Origin: an uncultured Methanosarcinales archaeon
Lineage (GTDB): Archaea; Nanobdellota; Nanobdellia; Woesearchaeales; CAYMBN01
Length of the DNA stretch: 64,000 nt
Reading direction: 5' to 3'
Assembly (NCBI GenBank): GCA_964388715.1
Contig: CAYMBN010000005.1
Coordinates: 3,434-67,433, forward strand
Shown here: in pieces, positions 5,818 through 62,400 of the stretch
How positions within the stretch are numbered: position 1 is the stretch's first letter
Layout of the letters: every line of letters begins with the position of its first letter
Notes under the pieces: generated by a model
What the model saw: the letters and a program-made list of their open reading frames with translations, nothing else
Databases searched by the model: none
Told to the model about the DNA's origin: nothing
Translations under genes and position numbers: made by a program

Positions 5818-5900
5818 ATATAACCCAATTCAAAAAAGCAAAAAATATATAAAGAGATACATAATTCTATGTATGGGGTAAAATAACAAATTAACCAAAA

Positions 5901-6230
5901 ATGAAAAACAGAACTACAATACAATTATCAGAGGACCTTAGAAAAAAGTTAAGAACATTAGCTGCAAAAAGAGATATCTCTTATCAAAAATTATTATCAG
6001 ACATGATATCTGTCTTCAAAGAGGTTGACAAAGACAAAACAATAATCTCAATTCCATCTAAACTAGCTGACAAACTTCAACAAAACATAATCAAATCGGA
6101 TTTTAACACATTAAGTGAATATGTTACATTCTTACTTAGATTACTTTTATATGAAGATACAACTTCAAAAAAAGTAAATAACGAAGAAAAAATTCGAACA
6201 AGATTAAAAAAATTGGGATATATTGGGTGA
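5901..6230 (+). CDS. small tandem ribbon-helix-helix-like protein with CysD-like C-terminal tail (…EEKIRTRLKKLGYIG)
   Basis: Two segments with the beta-strand plus two-helix RHH pattern (TTIQLSEDLRKKLRTLAAKRDISYQKLL; TIISIPSKLADKLQQNI…LSEYVTFLL); C-terminus matches the tail shared with CysD. Confidence 0.4.
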   Translation: MKNRTTIQLSEDLRKKLRTLAAKRDISYQKLLSDMISVFKEVDKDKTIISIPSKLADKLQQNIIKSDFNTLSEYVTFLLRLLLYEDTTSKKVNNEEKIRTRLKKLGYIG

Positions 6231-6234
6231 TACT

Positions 6235-7032
6235 ATGAATCATTTAGACGAACTTGAAAGCAAATCCATTTTTATAATAAGGGAAGCATATAAACAATTC
6301 AAAAAAGTAGCTTTGCTTTGGTCAATAGGCAAAGATTCAAGCTGCCTTCTTTGGCTTGTTAGAAAGGCTTTCTATGGTAAAATTCCTTTTCCAGTAGTAC
6401 ATATTGATACAAGTTACAAATTTAAATCAATGATTGAATGGAGAGATGAATATGCAAAAAAATGGAATCTAAACCTAATTGTTGGAAGAAATGAAGAAGC
6501 TATCAAAGCAGGAATGGGACCAAAAAATAAATTAGCTTGTTGTACTGCATTAAAAACAGATGCACTCAAGCAAGTTATTGAAAAATACAAATTCAGAGCA
6601 TTATTTTTAGGAATAAGAAGAGATGAACATGGAGTAAGAGCAAAGGAAAGAGTTTTCTCCCCAAGAAACATTGATTTTAAATGGGATTATAAAAATCAAC
6701 CACCAGAATTATGGGATCAATATAAAGCAAAAGCAGAGGAAGAAGAACATATAAGAGTTCATCCAATGTTACATTGGACAGAGTTAGATATTTGGTTATA
6801 CATTAGAAGAGAAAAAATACCTATTATCCCACTATATTTTTCAAAAAATGGAAAACGTTACAGAAGCATTGGATGTGAATGTTGTTGCTGCCCTATTGAT
6901 TCAGATGCTACTGATATTGACAAGGCAATCGAAGAATTAAAAACAACAAAACAAGGTGAAAGAGCTGGAAGAGCACAAGACAAAGAAGAAGCTAATGCAA
7001 TGCAAAAATTAAGAGCATTAGGTTATATGTGA
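6235..7032 (+). CDS. cysD: sulfate adenylyltransferase subunit 2 (CysD, PAPS-reductase fold)
   Basis: HLDELESKSIFIIREAYKQF…LWSIGKDSSCLLWLVRKAF…PVVHIDTSYKF is collinear with bacterial CysD; the C-terminus (…ERAGRAQDKEEANAMQKLRALGYM) resembles the E. coli CysD C-terminus as I recall it. The ORF track starts at TTG 6223; ATG 6235 is the more likely start. Confidence 0.8.
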   Translation: MNHLDELESKSIFIIREAYKQFKKVALLWSIGKDSSCLLWLVRKAFYGKIPFPVVHIDTSYKFKSMIEWRDEYAKKWNLNLIVGRNEEAIKAGMGPKNKLACCTALKTDALKQVIEKYKFRALFLGIRRDEHGVRAKERVFSPRNIDFKWDYKNQPPELWDQYKAKAEEEEHIRVHPMLHWTELDIWLYIRREKIPIIPLYFSKNGKRYRSIGCECCCCPIDSDATDIDKAIEELKTTKQGERAGRAQDKEEANAMQKLRALGYM

Positions 7033-7038
7033 TAAAAA

Positions 7039-7371
7039 GTGATTAAGACAAGAGATAAAAAAAGAAGAACCATTGTAAAAACCCTTACTTGGAGAGTAAT
7101 TGCAACACTTGTAACTATTGAAGCACTTTATTTAATTAGTGATGATATATGGATCTCAATTGTTGTTGGCCTAGCTATTAACTTTATCAAATCTATTTTA
7201 TATTTTGTCCATGAGAGATTATGGGAACATATTGGATGGGGTAGAAAAAAACATCCACTGTCAAATATATTAATAAATAATCCATTAAAAAAAGAAGATG
7301 AAAAAATTATAAAAAATAAACTTAGAGAATTAGGATATTTTGGAGGAAGTTTTCAAAATGAACCAAGATAA
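7039..7371 (+). CDS. small 2-TM membrane protein (DUF2061-like) carrying an internal/C-terminal …[13 protein letters not shown] motif
   Basis: GTG start; basic N-terminus, two hydrophobic helices ([16 protein letters not shown] / [18 protein letters not shown]), then the shared tail motif; overlaps the cysN start by 14 nt. Confidence 0.4.
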
Positions 7372-8590
7372 TTTCAAATTTGTAATAGTAGGACACATTG
7401 ACCATGGCAAATCAACATTAATAGGAAGATTACTTTTTGATACAAACTCATTACCAGAAGGAAAAATAGAAGAAATCAAAGCAATATGTACATCATTAGG
7501 AAAAGATTTAGAATTTGGTTATGTTATGGATAATCTTGAAGAAGAACGTGATCAAAACATTACAATTGATACTGCACAAATATTTTTTAGAACCAAAAAA
7601 AGAGAATATACTATTATTGATGCCCCTGGACATGTTGAGTTTGTAAAAAACATGATTACAGGTGCTTCACAAGCAGAAGCAGCAATATTAATAGTTGATG
7701 CTGATGAAGGGGTACAAGAACAAACAAGAAGACATTCTTATATCTTAAGTATGCTTGGTTTAAAACAAGTTATTGTCGTAATGAACAAAATGGACCTCAC
7801 TAATTACAATGAAGAAAGATTTCATAATGTAAAAGAAGAATTAATTAAATTTTTAGATAGTATAAACATAAAACCAACTTACATTATTCCAATATCTGCA
7901 AAACAAGGAGATTTTGTTGCAAAAAAAACAGAAAATATGCCTTGGTACAATGGCTTAACTGTATTAGAAGCACTTGATACATTTGAAGCCAATGAATCAA
8001 ACAACAAAAAACCATTAAGATTTTGTGTTCAGGATGTTTACAAATGGGATAAAAGAATCATAGCTGGTAGAGTTGAATCAGGAATACTAAAAAAAGATAG
8101 TGAGGTTACCATCTTACCATCTAATGAAAAAACAATAATAGAAAGTGTTGAAGAATTTTTAAAACAAGACATCAACGAAGCAGAATCTGGAAAATCAACT
8201 GGTATAGTTACAAAAGATAAAGTTTTTGTTGATAGAGGAAATATAATTTGTGAACCAAATAATTTACCAACAGTTACAAATCAGTTTAAAGCACATATTT
8301 TTTGGATGAGTAAAGAACCTTTGAAAAAAGGAGAAAGAGTATTTTTAAAATGTTCAACTCAAAATACAATATGTGAAATTAAAGATTTTGTAAGAATACT
8401 TAACTCCTCAACTCTGGAAGTAAAACAGAATAATAAACAAATAGAAAACAGAGAAGTAGCAGATGTAATAATTAAAACAGATAAACCAATTGTAGTAGAA
8501 AATTTTAATAAAGTTGAAGAATTAGGAAGGTTTGTATTAGAAAGACTTAACACATGTGCAGGAGGAATCATTACAGAGGTTGAAGAATGA
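7358..8590 (+). CDS. cysN: sulfate adenylyltransferase subunit 1 (CysN, EF-Tu-like GTPase)
   Basis: G1 [35 protein letters not shown] and TRRHSYI match CysN-specific motifs; GGAGG at 7342-7346 precedes ATG 7358 (the track ORF starts at an upstream TTG). Confidence 0.8.
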
Positions 8591-9333
8591 TTATTGTTTT
8601 AGCTGTTGATGCTTTAGAATTTAATAAAGTTGAAGAATTTAATTGTAGAAACCTTAAACAAGAATATTTTGGAAAAACAAACATTTCTGAATTTTCTCAA
8701 CCAAGAACAATGGTACTTTGGAGTTCATTTATGACTGGCCAAAATAAGGAAAAAGATGTCCTAAGTAATGGGAACAAAGAAATGTGGAACAAAAAATGGG
8801 ATATAAAAGAAACATTATTCTCAAACTTCCAAAACCCCATAATACTTGACCTCCCTGGATTCTCTTATAACCTAAAATCTCATGAAAAATCAAGAGAATT
8901 GCTCAAAGCTTTCTTTGAAACAGAAAATCCTGAGGAAAAACAAAAAATTAAAAATCAATATAACCAAGATGCATTTGAACATCATAAAAAAATAAAAAAA
9001 CAATTCCTTGAAACACTAAAATCAAACCAATACGACTTTGTTTTAGGTTATTTTAGTATTATTGATGTAATTGGACATTTAAACTTTGGAAACACAACCC
9101 TAATGAAAATGTTATATAAGGATATTGATGAAATTGCAGATGAAATAAGAAAAATACCAAATATTAAGCTGATTATACTATCTGATCATGGAATGAAAGC
9201 AATAGGTATGTTTGGAGATCACTCAGAATATGGCTTTTGGAGCACAAACTTTAAAAAGCTTGAGAATCCACAGATAACAGACTTTGCTAATATCATAACT
9301 GAATGTAAAAATGAAAATCAAAATCAAGGATGA
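8587..9333 (+). CDS. alkaline-phosphatase-superfamily protein, degenerate paralogue of the downstream NPP-like enzyme
   Basis: Collinear with the 9547 protein ([10 protein letters not shown] vs IIGIDGASF; LIILSDHGM vs FIISDHGF), but the metal/nucleophile positions are substituted. The ATGA overlap with the cysN stop suggests translational coupling. Confidence 0.4.
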
Positions 9334-9520
9334 AATAATAAAGAAAATACAAGATAGAATTAAAGATAATGATGAATTCAACAATGTAGAAGATTATATT
9401 AATTACATTCTTAAACAAGTTATAGAAAAATTAAACAAAAAAAACACAGACAAATCAACCTATTCAAAAAGAGATGAAGATAAAATAAAACAAAGACTAA
9501 AAAGTCTTGGTTACATGTAA
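9311..9520 (+). CDS. small RHH-like protein with CysD-like C-terminal tail (…EDKIKQRLKSLGYM)
   Basis: 69 aa; N-terminal beta-helix-helix pattern ([17 protein letters not shown]…VEDYINYILKQVIEKL) and the shared tail; overlaps the end of the previous ORF in another frame. Confidence 0.4.
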   Translation: MKIKIKDEIIKKIQDRIKDNDEFNNVEDYINYILKQVIEKLNKKNTDKSTYSKRDEDKIKQRLKSLGYM

Positions 9521-9546: not shown

Positions 9547-11079
9547 ATGGATAAAATTATAATTATTGGTATAGATGGAGCTTCTTTTAATATATTAGAT
9601 AAATGGATCAAAAAAGGATCATTACCAACATTCAAAAAATTGAAACAGAAAGGAAGCTATTGTAAATTAACCAGTACAATCCCACCTGTTACTCCACCAG
9701 CCTGGACATCTATCACAACAGGAAAAAACCCAGGCAAACATGATATCTTTGATTTCCAAAAAATTGATTCAGAACACAAATTTTCCTTAATTAACTCAAC
9801 AACAAACAAAGCAAAGGATTTCTGGGAATATACAAACAAAAAAACAATACTTATCAATTTCCCAACATACTTTCCACCAAAAAAAATAAATGGTTACATG
9901 GTGAGTGGCATGCTCACCCCAGGCATTAGTTCAAACTTCACTTATCCTAAAGAACTAAAAAAAGAAATCCTCAACATAATTCCAGATTACATCATTGAAG
10001 TTGATGAAAACCTTTACAAAGGAAGAATAAAAGAATTTTTATCTGACATTGACAAAATGACTAAACAAAGACATAAATTAATTAAACACATGCTAAAAAA
10101 AGAATGGGACATTTTTTTCACTGTAATCACTGGCTCAGATCGAATACAACATCTCGCTTGGAACAACCAAAATCTGCTAAATTATTACAAAAAAGTTGAT
10201 TCCATCTTAGATGACATAATAAAAAACCATGTTAAAGATAATGTAACCCTATTTATAATATCTGACCATGGTTTTACAGAAGTGAACAAAATATTTTACG
10301 TAAACACATTCTTAAAACAAGAACAAATTCTTTTTACAAAAGAAAAAACTAACAAAAAAATCCTAAAAAAAGTAGGTTTAACAAGAGAAACAATAATTAA
10401 TTTACTTCAAAAATTACATATTGATCTCACAAAACTAAAAATCCTTCTTCCAAACAAGATCAAAAACCTACTTCCACAAGAAGATCAAACACTTTATCAA
10501 AGTGTTAACTGGTCAAAAACAAAAGCATTTATGTTTGGTTTTGGTCAGATTTTCATTAATTCAAAAAAACGTTTTAAAAATGCTCCTTTATCTGAAAAAC
10601 AACATAATAAATTTAAAAAAGAATTAATAAAAATATTAAGTAATATTAAAGACCCACAAACAAATAAAAAAATAATAAAAAAAGTTTACACAAATGAACA
10701 AGCATACTCAGGAGATTATGCAAAAAATGGTCCTGATCTGATAATTGAACTTGAAAATGGTTATGCTTTTTCAGAAAAAATAACAAATCAACACATTGAA
10801 AAATCTGATTTTATTAATGCTGATCATGAAAAACAAGGAATTTTAATGTCTTATGGAAAACAAATTAAAGAAAATAACAATATGTCTAACAAAAATATAG
10901 TTGATTTTGCACCAACAATGTTACACATACTAAATTCAACAATTCCAAATGACATTGATGGTAAAGTTATAAAAGATATATTCAAGAAAGACTCAGAATT
11001 ATGTAAAAAAAGTGCCAAAATCAAAAAAATCACAGAAAAAGAAAATATTAGCACTGCATTGTCAGATATCAATATTTAA
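9547..11079 (+). CDS. alkaline phosphatase superfamily enzyme, type I phosphodiesterase / nucleotide pyrophosphatase (NPP)-like
   Basis: IIGIDGASFN…TSTIPPVTPPAWTSITTG (nucleophile Thr motif)…ISDHGF…DHE match PF01663-type AP-superfamily signatures. Confidence 0.55.
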   Translation: MDKIIIIGIDGASFNILDKWIKKGSLPTFKKLKQKGSYCKLTSTIPPVTPPAWTSITTGKNPGKHDIFDFQKIDSEHKFSLINSTTNKAKDFWEYTNKKTILINFPTYFPPKKINGYMVSGMLTPGISSNFTYPKELKKEILNIIPDYIIEVDENLYKGRIKEFLSDIDKMTKQRHKLIKHMLKKEWDIFFTVITGSDRIQHLAWNNQNLLNYYKKVDSILDDIIKNHVKDNVTLFIISDHGFTEVNKIFYVNTFLKQEQILFTKEKTNKKILKKVGLTRETIINLLQKLHIDLTKLKILLPNKIKNLLPQEDQTLYQSVNWSKTKAFMFGFGQIFINSKKRFKNAPLSEKQHNKFKKELIKILSNIKDPQTNKKIIKKVYTNEQAYSGDYAKNGPDLIIELENGYAFSEKITNQHIEKSDFINADHEKQGILMSYGKQIKENNNMSNKNIVDFAPTMLHILNSTIPNDIDGKVIKDIFKKDSELCKKSAKIKKITEKENISTALSDINI

Positions 11080-59400: not shown

Positions 59401-62400
59401 AAGTTAATGATGATTATGGAAATAATATTGGTAAAGTATATTTGATTTATGGACAGAATTATAATACAACAAACGTTAATTTAAGCACTGCTAATGCTTC
59501 TTGGTATGGTGAAGCTGCTGTTGATAGGTTAGGAGACGCTGTTACAGGTGCAGGTGATTTTAATAATGATGGATTTGATGATATTTTAATAGCTTCTCTC
59601 CGTAATGGCTTTGGAGGGAACCTAGCAGGCAGAATATACTTAATTTATGGGCCAGCAAGTGGAAAAAATATGAACATAAGTAATGTTACAAATATTTCAT
59701 GGTATGGAGAAAACCAAACAGATGGTGCTGGTAAAGTCCTTTCAAGTGCAGGAGATGTTGATAATGATGGTTATAATGATATTTTAATTGCTTCTGGCAA
59801 TGATATGGGTGGAACTGGTGCTGGAAAAGTATACTTAATCTATGGAAGTAGTCCATTCACAAGTCCAACATTAACAATAAACAAAAATATTACACAAGTT
59901 AATGAAAGTTATAATACAATTCAAATTAATTGGACAGCATCACACAATTCTCCTATAATAACTGCTTTATTTAACATAACTTTCCCTAATGGAAGTTTAC
60001 TTAGCAATTCAACTTTAAGTTCAGGAAATGTAAGTTTAAACCTCACCAATCTTACAGCATTAGGTACATATACAATAAATTTATGGGCAAATAATACCTA
60101 TAATTTAACTAATGTAACAAGTGACACATTCAGTGTTAATGATACAAATCCTCCAAACATCACATTAATTATACCAACAAACAATACTAAAAATTACACA
60201 CATTATAATATAAATTTTTATTATAATGTTACTGATGTTTTATCAAATGTAAACAATTGCTCATTAATTATAAATAATATAATTAATCTAACAAACATTA
60301 CAATTGATCAATCACTAAGTAGTTTACATTTTAATCAAACATTTACAGATGGACAATACAACTGGTCTATTAATTGTACTGATAATGCTAGTAATATTGG
60401 AGAAAGTAATATTTTTAATTTAACAGTTTTAATGGACACAACTTCTCCATCTGTAAATTTAGATAATCCAACAAATAATTTTAACGCAAATCAAATAAAT
60501 ATTTCTCTTAACTGTTCTGCTACTGACAATGAACAATTAAAAAATGTCACCATTTATACAAACATGACAGGATCATGGCAAGCTAATTATACAGGCAGTG
60601 TTAGTGGAATAAGTAATTCAACTAATGTAACACTCACAGGATTAGGTGATGGAACTTACTTATGGAACTGTCTTACATATGATAGTGCAGGTAACAATGC
60701 ATGGAACAATACTAATTACACATTTAATATTGATGCAACCCCACCAAACATCTCATTAATGTCGCCTGCTAATAATTCAAATTGGACAGATAATACACTT
60801 GTTGTTTTTGTTTACAATACAACTTCAACTGATGTTACCAATTGTTCATTAATCATAAACAATAAAACATACAAAACAAACTCAACAATAACACAGAACC
60901 AAATCCTAAATTTTTCTAACATAGTAAACAATGGACCAAACAATTGGAGCATTAACTGTACTGATAATTTTAGTAACACAATCAGTTCAAAAACATGGAT
61001 AATTAATGTTAATTATACAAAGAATCACACTTTGTATAAAGTTTGGGATACTGGCACAATTGATCTTTCACTTGCTTCCTTAGATATATTTGATTATTCA
61101 CAAGATAATAACAAGAATGAAATAATAGTTGGAGGATTTGGAGATTTGTTTGCTTACTATGCAAACGGAACACAAATCTGGAACAGTACTGATCCTGTTG
61201 GATTTATTCGAGACATAGAAGTATTTGATATTGGAAATGGTTTTAATGATACAATAGCTGTTGCAGATTCAACAGCAGGATTCAAAATATATGATAAAGA
61301 TGGAAACAAGTTATGTAATAATTCCTACACTTCTAGTGCAGAACAAACAATAAGTGTCGGAGATTTTGATAGAGACAATCAAAGTAGGGAAATTGTTTTA
61401 CTAAACTGGATATTACCTAACACATTCAAATTAAAAGCATTCAATTCAAGCTGTAACTTATTATGGGAATACTCATTAACATCTATAACAACAGAAACTG
61501 AAACAGGTGACTTTGATGGTGATGGTTACAAAGATGAAGTTGCCTTAATAAGTAATGGTACATTATATATATTCAATAGTACAGGTGGAGTTAGATGGAA
61601 CACAAGTTATTTAGGAGATGCAACAATGTCATTAGAAGTATTTGATATTAATAATGATACAGATGATGAAATAATCATTGGTGTAAGATATGCCAAAACA
61701 ACACACATGATAATGGCATACAATGGTTCTGGTACTGTAATGTGGAACAACACAGATGTTTCTGGTCAAATACACGAAATAAGATTTGATGATTTTGACA
61801 ATGATGGAAGAAAAGATGATATTGCTTCTGCAGACACTGATAATGCCTTAGCTGTTGTCATAGATAGTGAAGGAAATACTCTATGGAGCCATGATTTTAG
61901 TAGTGGTACAACTGTTTATTCTCTTACAACAGGAGATATCAATAATGATAATAGAACAGATATTGTAACAACAGAAGGTACAAATGCCAATATTTATGGA
62001 ATTGAGGATGGAGGAACAATTGCTACTTTCACAGATCCAACTACTAATATTGGATTAATTGACTCTGACGGAAGCATAGTAACAGCTGATTTAGATGGTG
62101 ATGATTATTTGGATATAATTGTTGCAGAAATAAGCGGAATATTATATTTACTAGAAGCAAGACCTGAAAATAATACAGCACCAAATATAACACTAAATAG
62201 TCCAACACACAATAACAACATAAGTAATTCCACAATTAACTTTAATTGGACTGTGATTGATAATTTAGATTTAAATTTACTTTGTAATCTAACAATTGAT
62301 GATATAGTAAATGCTTCAAGTATTAAATCCTTAAATAATACACCAAATAATTATACAGTTGATAACTTTAATGATGGGTCACATAACTGGAGCATGACTT

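Follow-up and report, generated by a model that had tools for sequence, protein, structure and literature searches.

Within the 64-kb window (the whole stretch of DNA analysed), a run of genes on the plus strand appears to form one sulfate-activation operon, in the order putative operator, gene of the probable tandem ribbon-helix-helix (RHH) repressor, cysD, DUF2061 gene, cysN, small alkaline-phosphatase-fold (AlkP-fold) gene, single-RHH gene and large AlkP-fold gene:

5857..5874, + strand: operator-like 18-bp palindrome ATACATAATTCTATGTAT, 44 nt before the tandem-RHH ATG
5901..6230, + strand: tandem ribbon-helix-helix protein, 109 aa; tail residues 94-109 at nt 6180-6227
6235..7032, + strand: short-form CysD, 265 aa from ATG 6235; tail DKEEANAMQKLRALGYM at nt 6979-7029
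TTG 6223, + strand: alternative start of CysD, giving 269 aa
7039..7371, + strand: DUF2061 two-helix membrane protein, 110 aa; motif at about nt 7288-7341
7340..8590, + strand: CysN, EF-1alpha-like GTPase subunit, start at TTG 7340 or ATG 7358
8587..9333, + strand: small alkaline-phosphatase-fold protein, PF01663-like, 248 aa (Phosphodiest 30.7 bits); without the tail
9311..9520, + strand: single-RHH protein (S69), 69 aa; tail at nt 9470-9517
9547..11079, + strand: phosphodiesterase/nucleotide-pyrophosphatase-family protein, 510 aa (PF01663 146.6 bits)

The 3' end of the DUF2061 gene overlaps the start of cysN. The start of the S69 gene overlaps the end of the small AlkP-fold gene, and we found no promoter or operator of its own for this single-RHH gene (9311-9520). 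CysD matches PAPS_reduct (148.6 bits) and NCBIfam PRK05253 (361 bits versus a cut-off of 195) and scores under the stricter cut-offs of TIGR02039 (271 versus 397) and PRK12563 (291 versus 413). Hence, it is a divergent short-form CysD. It aligns with PDB 1zun_A (E 5e–66) with a deletion of ∼32 residues and, when called from ATG 6235, is 100% identical to database protein P0121. CysN scores 360.1 bits for TIGR02034 (cut-off 336.1), and its match to PDB 1zun_B (281.5 bits) nearly equals that to archaeal EF-1alpha (1jny, 280.8 bits). We compared the window with cysD loci from 80 other genomes (81 loci in all). Homologues of cysN are present in 72 of the 81, after cysD by at most one or two genes, and those of the small AlkP-fold gene in 34, mostly directly after cysN. 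The 510-aa phosphodiesterase is the last conserved member of the cluster. Such clusters lie amid glycan-synthesis genes and adjoin aglB in Ferroglobus.

CysD and three of its small neighbours have a core peptide in common, K-L-R-x-L-G-Y-M/L. We verified the four open reading frames and their tails: the tandem-RHH protein ends …NNEEKIRTRLKKLGYIG, CysD …DKEEANAMQKLRALGYM and the 69-aa RHH protein …DEDKIKQRLKSLGYM, while in the DUF2061 protein 10 further residues follow the motif to the C-terminus. A six-frame translation of the window contains exactly 4 matches of [KR]L[KR]xLGY, all on the plus strand and all in these four frames, versus 0.01 on average, and never more than 1, in 100 nucleotide shuffles of the window. 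An earlier note on this DNA had claimed that the four tails are alike and that the peptide rather than the DNA is conserved, and both claims stand. Tail DNA is identical at 20–31 of 48 nt in pairwise comparisons, and about half of the identical residues are encoded by different codons, which speaks against a recent DNA repeat. The tails also outdo chance in orthologous loci: across the 81 cysD loci (366,184 residues) L-x-x-L-G-Y-hydrophobic was found 143 times at C-termini and 7 times internally, versus 0 matches in the reversed sequences. Most of these loci code for at least two carriers and, in line with the earlier note, small ORFs ending in LGY[MIF] recur beside cysDN in related genomes. 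The full motif takes up 12–16 residues: acidic positions lead into an amphipathic helix of three turns, which is closed by a Gly cap and followed by Tyr and a hydrophobic residue; the hydrophobic stripe of the helix is narrow (V/I/M, L, L), with the pattern [IVM]-x-x-[KR]-L-x-x-L-G-Y-hydrophobic.

In CysD the tail is characteristic of the family, with D249-K-E, M256, K258-L-R and L262-G-Y-M invariant in 50 homologues. In the AlphaFold monomer model the core has pLDDT >90 and the tail (residues 249-265) <50; the tail is modelled as an undocked helix at 250-261. The resemblance to the end of canonical bacterial CysD holds only in part: P. syringae CysD (1zun_A), ending …SMEEKKRQGY plus one residue, shares Met, a run of basic residues and a final G-Y-aromatic with the tail but has neither of the two leucines of the motif.

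The carriers had been described as unrelated. For the two RHH proteins this is incorrect, as they are paralogues, S69 aligning with the second half of the 109-aa protein. Both belong to a family built of an RHH domain, a linker and the tail, whose linkers are variable and charged and whose tail is nearly invariant. An alignment of 60 small motif carriers supports one RHH-tail family, and the family profile finds 4,947 database proteins, those of cultured Thermococcales and Archaeoglobales among them. L63, G67 and Y68 are invariant in the alignment of S69 with 35 family members, and so are L102, L105, G106 and Y107 in ∼100 homologues of the tandem-RHH protein. S69 alone has no Pfam match, its membership coming from the family alignment; Pfam RHH_1 is matched by 8 of 36 single-RHH members (best E 8e–06). 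The first unit of the 109-aa protein reaches 21.3 bits for RHH_1 (cut-off 20.5), but no individual stretch passes, and its matches to DUF7557 and CopG_antitoxin stay under the cut-off. Secondary structure predicted for this protein by AlphaFold with low confidence (pLDDT 60; strands at 4-8 and 48-52, helices at 11-23, 28-38, 53-64, 71-87 and 94-104) gives two beta-alpha-alpha units followed by a linker and a tail helix, consistent with a tandem RHH that binds one palindrome as a pseudo-dimer. Together these results place the family among the RHH (CopG/Arc/MetJ) regulators, whose domain is a beta-strand and two helices in about 45 residues. Homologues of the tandem-RHH gene lie directly upstream of cysD-cysN in 3 of 3 look-ups. 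Near-identical 75-aa proteins are encoded by Ferroglobus, Pyrococcus, Aciduliprofundum, Archaeoglobus, Thermococcus and Methanocaldococcus, in cultured archaea the operon starts with the RHH-tail gene, and some RHH proteins have two tandem tails.

Three RHH subfamilies have palindromes or repeat arrays between a TATA-like box and the start codon. ATACATAATTCTATGTAT, its sole match in the window at ≤2 mismatches, is directly downstream of an A/T-rich, TATA-like stretch. The corresponding ATACATA-N4-TATGTAT is upstream of 13 of the 13 tandem-RHH genes found (11 perfect, 2 with one mismatch) and adjoins a TTTATA(T/A)A box in most other loci. Promoters of the 75-aa type contain TAATTA-N4-TAATTA (≤1 mismatch) in 65 of 76 cases versus 0.95% of background 90-nt windows, and their putative operators are arrays of 2–4 TAATTA sites, one every 10 bp. 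Upstream of the 70-aa subfamily we found a third palindrome, CACTC…GAGTG. Since each subfamily has its own conserved putative operator in its own promoter, these proteins are likely autoregulators; the tandem-RHH protein is probably the autorepressor of the operon, and for the family we infer DNA binding and repression from sequence. The earlier view of the small proteins as mere mimics of the CysD tail has to be revised: the two RHH proteins represent one family of likely autoregulators defined by its tail.

We also sampled RHH-tail genes independently of cysD and found Sat in 55 of 80 loci, CysD in 9 and CysN in 4; the family mostly heads Sat/APS-kinase operons without CysN. Where the sequence extends 3 kb or more downstream, every RHH-tail locus (38 of 38) contains sulfate-activation or sulfation genes, and sulfate-activation operons headed by repressor-type RHH-tail proteins occur in many archaea as well as in some bacteria. 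In many bacterial loci the CysD tail is kept and the RHH gene is absent. No tail-less family was present in all loci. As RHH-tail operons mostly lack CysN, this subunit is not a general receptor of the tail.

We sorted the carriers into families by Pfam. The DUF2061 protein of the window matches PF09834 (52.3 bits versus 23.1) at residues 12-63, and its tail extension (KHPLS…) lies outside the profile. Many DUF2061 representatives of ∼100 aa have the extension …KHPLSxLPV…ED…I[KR]xKLKELGY[LIM] in common, so DUF2061 plus tail is, as judged from sequence, a recurrent subfamily. Two further members, P0350 and P0381, sit between a cysD whose product ends …LGYM and a CysN-type GTPase; the extension is absent from ten other DUF2061 neighbours of cysD. 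Between cysD and cysN we also found a TauE permease with the motif inside a cytoplasmic loop; there are six NDTEH-type copies of this loop, those of cysDN loci included. PAPS_reduct paralogues in these loci end …KLKKLGYL. On AlkP and sulfatase proteins the motif is sporadic: homologues of the 510-aa phosphodiesterase have the tail at three loci (L004, ending …EDEKRIKEQLKALGYLD, L018 and L022), and the window copy lacks it. Some sulfatases with the motif have lipoprotein or transmembrane N-termini and are predicted to be extracytoplasmic, which would place their tails outside the cell. In APS kinases of solved structure (8a8h, 7yq0) the chain ends …LMELGYL or …AQKLGYL, and this ending is the fold's ordinary terminal helix. 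Hence, some of the similarity may reflect structural convergence on a helix with a Gly cap. The ending is only loosely conserved, distant APS kinases having looser forms (…DLKY, …KEGF).

Overall, we suggest, with confidence evenly balanced, that the tail is a portable docking motif of the sulfate-activation pathway that is also carried by the pathway's own repressor. The RHH proteins would be CopG/Arc-type autoregulators heading sulfate-activation and sulfation operons of both the CysDN and the Sat/APS-kinase type, and the motif would have been added time and again to members of a single pathway (CysD, PAPS-reductase paralogues, sulfatases and phosphodiesterases, DUF2061 proteins, the TauE loop and the RHH regulators). 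As a protein-protein docking peptide, it might dock its carriers at one shared site of the sulfate-activating machinery or to each other; a common receptor for the tails is possible, with CysN a candidate in cysDN-type loci only. Through docking of the repressor, transcription of the operon would follow the assembly or occupancy state of the machinery, in much the way that an RHH antitoxin ties repression to its toxin by means of its tail. Both the docking function and this feedback logic are what we infer for the tail. A broader version is possible but on the whole doubtful: the LGY tail may be a pathway-wide address tag for a membrane-associated sulfation complex, with the tagged RHH repressor titrated by free docking sites. 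The complex would comprise a sulfate transporter or membrane anchor, ATP sulfurylase (CysDN or Sat), APS kinase and sulfatase/AlkP-type enzymes, its assembly state would set transcription, and the arrangement would be common to many archaea and several bacterial phyla.

The earlier note had named CysN as the most plausible partner: the CysD tail would bind CysN, and the small proteins would mimic it as regulators or adaptors; membrane carriers, in this model, might serve as tethers. The CysN of cysDN-type loci is conserved and, as in the window, never has the motif itself, the genes for the DUF2061 tail and the TauE loop copies sit between cysD and cysN (in many cases overlapping cysN or directly adjoining it), and the monomer model shows the CysD tail undocked from the rest of the protein; the aP1 C-terminal helix, which binds the CysN homologue EF-1alpha, offers a precedent (PMC4267659). 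However, the same tail (RLRALGYL versus KLRALGYM in CysD) is found on RHH proteins of mostly Sat-type operons, with CysN in 4 of 80, some carriers would, by prediction, be located outside the cytoplasm, 72 CysN sequences do not preserve the domain-3 half of the aP1 cleft and canonical CysD lacks the two leucines. Docking on CysN thus fails as a general function and is a live option only within cysDN-type loci; as an account of the tail we consider it rather unlikely.

The tails might instead associate with one another, the paired helices making RHH dimers cooperative on repeated operators, as likened to the C-terminal helix of the Mnt repressor, and letting bivalent RHH proteins cross-link tail-bearing proteins. 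The lack of a universal tail-less partner, the two or more carriers in most loci, the 2–4 TAATTA sites at 10-bp spacing, the tandem tails of some RHH proteins and a hydrophobic spacing (i, i+4, i+7) that suits a short coiled-coil register agree with such pairing. Still, we judge it clearly unlikely: ∼11 residues make a very short helix for a stable bundle, the tail is kept in the tandem RHH with its putative single palindrome, and the invariant G-Y suggests specific recognition or capping rather than a generic zipper. It is very unlikely that the tails have no common function and are a convergent ending, that is, an amphipathic last helix with a Gly cap (Schellman-type L-x-x-L-G-aromatic) packing on its own domain. 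The last helices of the solved APS kinases and the motif on extracytoplasmic sulfatases fit this reading, but the RHH tail comes after a variable, highly charged linker and exceeds it in conservation, the CysD tail is unpacked in the model, the motif occurs as an insert in a permease loop and as an appendage of DUF2061, and chance would hardly produce both the exact 8-residue identity of CysD and RHH tails and the confinement to one pathway. Membrane targeting, in which the basic amphipathic helix would concentrate the pathway on the cytoplasmic membrane near the sulfate transporter and lipid-linked glycan acceptors (the C-terminal helices of MinD and FtsA bind membrane), is hardly credible, since despite the flexible linker, the glycan-synthesis surroundings (aglB in Ferroglobus) and the membrane-protein loops and tails among the carriers, the hydrophobic face is narrow, the invariant L, L, G and Y are far stricter than in usual membrane-targeting helices and a DNA-bound repressor would need to quit its operator.

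Sulfate activation belongs to textbook metabolism, yet hardly anything is known to us of how archaea and candidate-phyla organisms regulate and organise the process. Our analysis links sulfation operons with a family of small RHH regulators numbering in the thousands, for which it gives concrete putative operator sequences, and provides a short conserved peptide that marks pathway proteins and can be used to find new members. It also raises the idea that a metabolic repressor and the enzymes under its control share a docking peptide. Hosts are cultured and partly genetically tractable (Pyrococcus, Thermococcus, Ferroglobus, Aciduliprofundum).

PAPS/APS reductases have a mobile C-terminal active-site tail, ECGLH, and the CysD tail is at the same position in a homologous fold. 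However, the LGY tail lacks the catalytic cysteine, and its non-homologous carriers cannot use it as an active-site lid. The RHH-tail genes have a documented relative in Pyrococcus yayanosii: in PMC8268124, PYCH_17520 is annotated as a putative copG regulator of an archaeal ATP sulfurylase/DHH pAp phosphatase/phosphodiesterase/APS kinase cluster, the same gene family and operon type as here. The Ferroglobus (ferp_2428-2433) and Aciduliprofundum (aboo_0230-0235) clusters listed there were recovered by us as well; the passages there that deal with the copG gene make no mention of a tail motif, operators, cysDN-type relatives or other carriers. Sulfur assimilation offers a precedent for a docking peptide, the C-terminal tail of CysE, which inserts into CysK and is mimicked by the CdiA-CT toxin (PMC5562914), an enzyme's C-terminal peptide copied by unrelated proteins. 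The CysE tail is a few extended residues ending in Ile and bound in the active site; the element described here is an amphipathic helix capped by Gly-Tyr, belongs to an earlier step of the pathway and has many carriers.

The C-terminal helix of aP1, the archaeal ribosomal stalk protein (L100, L103, L106, F107 and C-terminal G108; PMC4267659) binds EF-1alpha, EF-2 and IF5B (PMC4267659, PMC5887453). It resembles the LGY tail in its flexible linker, short C-terminal helix, L-x-x-L with a terminal aromatic residue, and a target GTPase of CysN's family; the LGY motif, however, also occurs in operons without any such GTPase. The aP1-type EF-1alpha-binding cleft is not preserved in 72 CysN sequences, where I384 is replaced by E/D and L359 by E/N/K, and K324 is K/R in only 37. 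The F129 position is Y/F in 68 of the 72.

The RHH antitoxins CcdA, RelB and ParD have toxin-binding C-terminal tails and show conditional cooperativity. The present operon differs in having no toxin and coding for metabolic enzymes, and its tail is short, nearly invariant and also found on enzymes and membrane proteins, with partner binding putative. The two systems are alike in a small N-terminal RHH domain and a palindromic operator, here putative, in the gene's own promoter. In antitoxins the flexible C-terminal segment folds into a helix on a partner from the same operon, so that repression reports the state of that partner, and the RHH-tail regulators may work in a comparable way.

The C-terminal peptide [KR]L[KR]xLGY (hereafter the tail) is common to CysD and three small neighbours encoded in the following cluster.

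Genes of the cysDN cluster in the window
5901-6230, + strand, 109-aa RHH-type protein (weak Pfam matches)
6223/6235-7032, + strand, CysD (PAPS_reduct; PRK05253, 361 bits)
7039-7371, + strand, DUF2061 membrane protein (Pfam / NCBIfam assignment)
7340-8590, + strand, CysN (TIGR02034, above cut-off)
8587-9333, + strand, alkaline-phosphatase-fold protein, 248 aa
9311-9520, + strand, 69-aa protein (no family match in Pfam or NCBIfam)
9547-11079, + strand, type I phosphodiesterase-family protein, 510 aa

The cluster is flanked by glycan-synthesis genes (DegT aminotransferase, capsule-synthesis-like, flippase-like). Neither a Sat-type ATP sulfurylase (Sat) nor an APS kinase, DHH phosphatase or sulfotransferase was found within the 64-kb window, and CysDN is partnered there solely with the two alkaline-phosphatase-fold proteins. 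A PF01663-family gene is present alongside most short-form cysDN loci; in a paper on Pyrococcus yayanosii, the PF01663 enzyme is speculated to remove pyrophosphate (PMC8268124). A 76.6-kb JGI metagenome contig encodes identical proteins, with gene calls that agree as well, and the closest cysD relatives belong to uncultured archaea and Woesearchaeota. Operon packing is very tight around cysD-DUF2061-cysN. At 7027-7041, cysD and its DUF2061 neighbour share one reading frame and are separated only by two successive stops (…LGYM, stop, stop, KVIKTRD…); the latter gene starts with GTG, and its 3' end extends 14-32 nt past the cysN start. CysN is deep-branching and EF-1alpha-like. Its 7358-8587 segment scores 280.8 bits against 1jny (archaeal EF-1alpha) versus 281.5 bits against 1zun_B, the only solved CysN.

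The four ORFs and their C-termini agree exactly with the earlier note, and comparison of the tail coding regions showed that the underlying DNA is not a recent repeat. In a six-frame translation of the 64 kb, [KR]L[KR]xLGY matched four times, solely at the four C-termini (0.01 expected from shuffling). We then scanned 366,184 residues from 80 loci retrieved with the CysD protein as query, which span Woesearchaeota, Thermoplasmata, Methanoperedens, Altiarchaeota, Omnitrophota, Acidobacteriota, Patescibacteria, Chloroflexota and others. The relaxed form L-x-x-L-G-Y-hydrophobic occurred 143 times at most 12 residues from a C-terminus and 7 times internally; the reversed sequences of the same loci gave no match. 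The tail exceeds chance. Carriers other than CysD are concentrated in two places relative to cysD, upstream within a few hundred bases and downstream at 2-5 kb. Overall, the motif is real, conserved and pathway-restricted. Its carriers fall into six or more unrelated families, besides APS kinases with a looser version. Neither a description of the motif nor a statement on the CysD C-terminus turned up in the papers searched. Readings as an HbYX proteasome activator or a PIP box were rejected on sequence: Gly precedes Tyr, many tails extend past the motif, and the spacing is wrong.

In short-form CysD the motif always forms the very last residues, with DKE, M, KLR and LGYM invariant. Canonical CysD (1zun_A, …SMEEKKRQGY plus one residue) retains just the Met, a basic stretch and the G-Y-aromatic end. 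An AlphaFold2 model of the window CysD (50 homologues) has a core with pLDDT >90 and a C-terminal segment (residues 249-265), helical at 250-261, that stays below 50; the tail is therefore not packed in cis against its own CysD chain in this model. The 50 homologues also share invariant cysteines, …LACCTALK… and …SIGCECCC(C/S)P… (C102, C103, C214, C217 and C218 counted from the ATG). They form the CC…CxxC pattern by which assimilatory APS reductases hold their [4Fe-4S] cluster. P. syringae CysD is without these cysteines, and the short form is without ~32 residues of 1zun_A. Short-form CysD may be an iron-sulfur CysD subfamily. In one locus (L096, 5047-7122), a 691-aa ORF has a CysD-like start (…NEYLDDLESRSI…) and a CysD tail end (…MQKLRALGYM), hence ~420 additional internal residues, which may represent an intein or an inserted domain.

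One group of carriers, small proteins of 63-131 aa, can be aligned throughout as a single family. Its members consist of an RHH module (…TTVSIPxxLxxKIKxxIxGTGFxSVSEYVTFVLREIV), a charged linker that varies, and a tail with the consensus [ST]xE[ED]ExxK[VI]KERL[RK]xLGY[LI][DE]. The window 69-aa protein belongs to this family and the 109-aa protein is the same module with a second RHH unit in front, so two of the three small proteins that had been described as unrelated are paralogues. The AlphaFold model of the 109-aa protein (mean pLDDT 60, for which reason we used its secondary structure alone) comprises two beta-alpha-alpha units followed by a linker of low confidence and a helix spanning 94-104. 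Some RHH proteins of 103-113 aa (P0001, P0004 and P0006) carry two tandem tail motifs (…RKRLRALGYLPDE…EEKIRKRLKDLGYI), with Pro after the first, as in the TauE loop version described below.

The third small protein represents a ~100-aa DUF2061 subfamily whose members share the conserved extension …KHPLSxLPV…ED…I[KR]xKLKELGY[LIM]. The gene order of the window recurs for two members that we looked up, each with a tailed cysD (…LGYM) on one side and the gene of a CysN-type GTPase on the other; other DUF2061 proteins of cysDN loci are without the extension. Ten tail-less cysD-linked homologues had suggested a tail peculiar to this lineage, an idea dropped when exhaustive search found the whole tailed subfamily. 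TauE/SafE permeases encoded between cysD and cysN carry the motif in an internal loop (…NDTEHxIVKRLGKLGY[FLM]P[RK]S). The DUF2061/TauE slot is occupied at several loci by a ~148-aa protein with an HxHxHxx (HIT-like) motif (…SQSVNHFHIHMIPR…; L053 4555-5001, L055 11010-11450, L071 3968-4414, L021 3528-3998). Further carriers are sulfatase-family (PF00884) and phosphodiesterase-family (PF01663) proteins of 400-610 aa, some with lipoprotein-type or transmembrane N-termini and hence predicted extracellular tails. PAPS_reduct paralogues of 197-221 aa terminate in …KLKKLGYL; those at L016 6683-7276, L020 2747-3412 and L049 12978-13637 (~200-220 aa) end in …KLKKLGYL or …RLKALGYI. PAPS/APS reductases have the catalytic ECGLH tail at the corresponding end, and the paralogues are unlikely to be reductases. 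Many APS kinases of related operons terminate in …VEKVLKKLEELGYI, which forms the usual final helix of the kinase fold (solved structures 8a8h, …AQKLGYL, and 7yq0, …LMELGYL); distant APS kinases have a looser form. An internal motif also occurs in two large bacterial proteins, L012 7451-9469 (672 aa, …EALERLQSLGYVSSG…) and L074 7783-10029 (748 aa, …TREKLASLGYIQGT…), where the sequence continues past it.

A profile search with the RHH-tail family returned 4,947 proteins; those of cultured Thermococcales, Archaeoglobales, Methanocaldococcus and Aciduliprofundum are near-identical across 75 residues. To avoid selection by cysD, we fetched 80 metagenome loci via the RHH-tail protein itself (query, a 9-sequence subset of a 36-sequence alignment). 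Sat was nearby in 55, cysD in 9 and cysN in 4. Sulfate-activation or sulfation genes are present in every one of the 38 loci that extend 3 kb or more downstream, and no single tail-less family is common to them all. The usual order is RHH, Sat, DHH phosphoesterase, (phosphodiesterase), APS kinase, then sulfotransferase, TauE or Na/sulfate symporter. The tandem-RHH proteins (~100 clusters; cysDN-operon setting in 3/3 look-ups) are the one subfamily specific to cysDN operons.

In every RHH subfamily, the stretch from a TATA-like box to the gene's own start codon holds a conserved DNA element. The element ATACATAAT(T/A)(C/T/A)TATGTAT precedes 13/13 tandem-RHH genes; the window carries this palindrome once, as ATACATAATTCTATGTAT at 5857-5874. 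Arrays of TAATTA-N4-TAATTA (at most one mismatch) occur in 65/76 promoters of the 75-aa type, against 0.95% of background 90-nt windows and 1.8% of shuffled promoters; the spacing is N4, and N5 showed no enrichment. Window matches to the TAATTA pattern at 61000 and 63904, in a stretch without a listed ORF (possibly a long one that continues past the window end), were taken as chance. A CACTC…GTAGTAC…GAGTG palindrome lies upstream of the 70-aa subfamily, itself upstream of cysD in Methanoperedens-type loci. The gene of the window 69-aa protein starts inside the one before it and so lacks its own promoter. These three predicted operator types form a clear phylogenetic footprint, and the RHH proteins are very probably autoregulatory DNA-binding factors, to judge from these elements. 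The tail defines a large family of such putative autoregulators.

The earlier note had proposed that the small proteins mimic the CysD tail and could dock on the same partner, most plausibly CysN. CysN-specific docking is the alternative that we rank first of four. The RHH tail (RLRALGYL) is nearly that of CysD (KLRALGYM), yet it resides mostly in operons without CysN, which rules CysN out as the general receptor. We also took the EF-1alpha residues contacted by aP1, the archaeal ribosomal stalk protein, and located their counterparts in the window CysN and in 71 relatives; F129, K324 and I384 are essential in that docking (PMC4267659). Domain-1 contacts are retained (Y/F in 68/72) in CysN, which holds for the GTPase family at large; those of domain 3 are not (I384 to E/D, L359 to E/N/K, K324 as K/R in 37/72), leaving an aP1-type mode unsupported. 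Docking on other CysN surfaces is possible. Association of the motif-bearing proteins with one another through their tails ranks second and structural convergence on the motif third; we give least credence to membrane targeting by the motif.

The motif reads as a three-turn helix with hydrophobics at i, i+4 and i+7, flanking basic residues and an acidic stretch ahead; Gly would close the helix and Tyr fold back in a Schellman-type cap. We suggest that the tail is a docking peptide that would bring the sulfate-activation enzymes together with the regulator and the membrane proteins, and that the putative repressor's copy might couple transcription to the state of the sulfate-activation machinery. 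The Sat-type operon described above is also present in Ferroglobus placidus, Pyrococcus sp. NA2 and Aciduliprofundum boonei, adjoining aglB in Ferroglobus and glycosyltransferases in Ferroglobus and Pyrococcus. Such an operon has been described in Pyrococcus yayanosii, where its first gene is annotated as a putative copG regulator (PMC8268124), and the DHH enzyme of one such cluster is a proven pAp phosphatase (PMC10322725).
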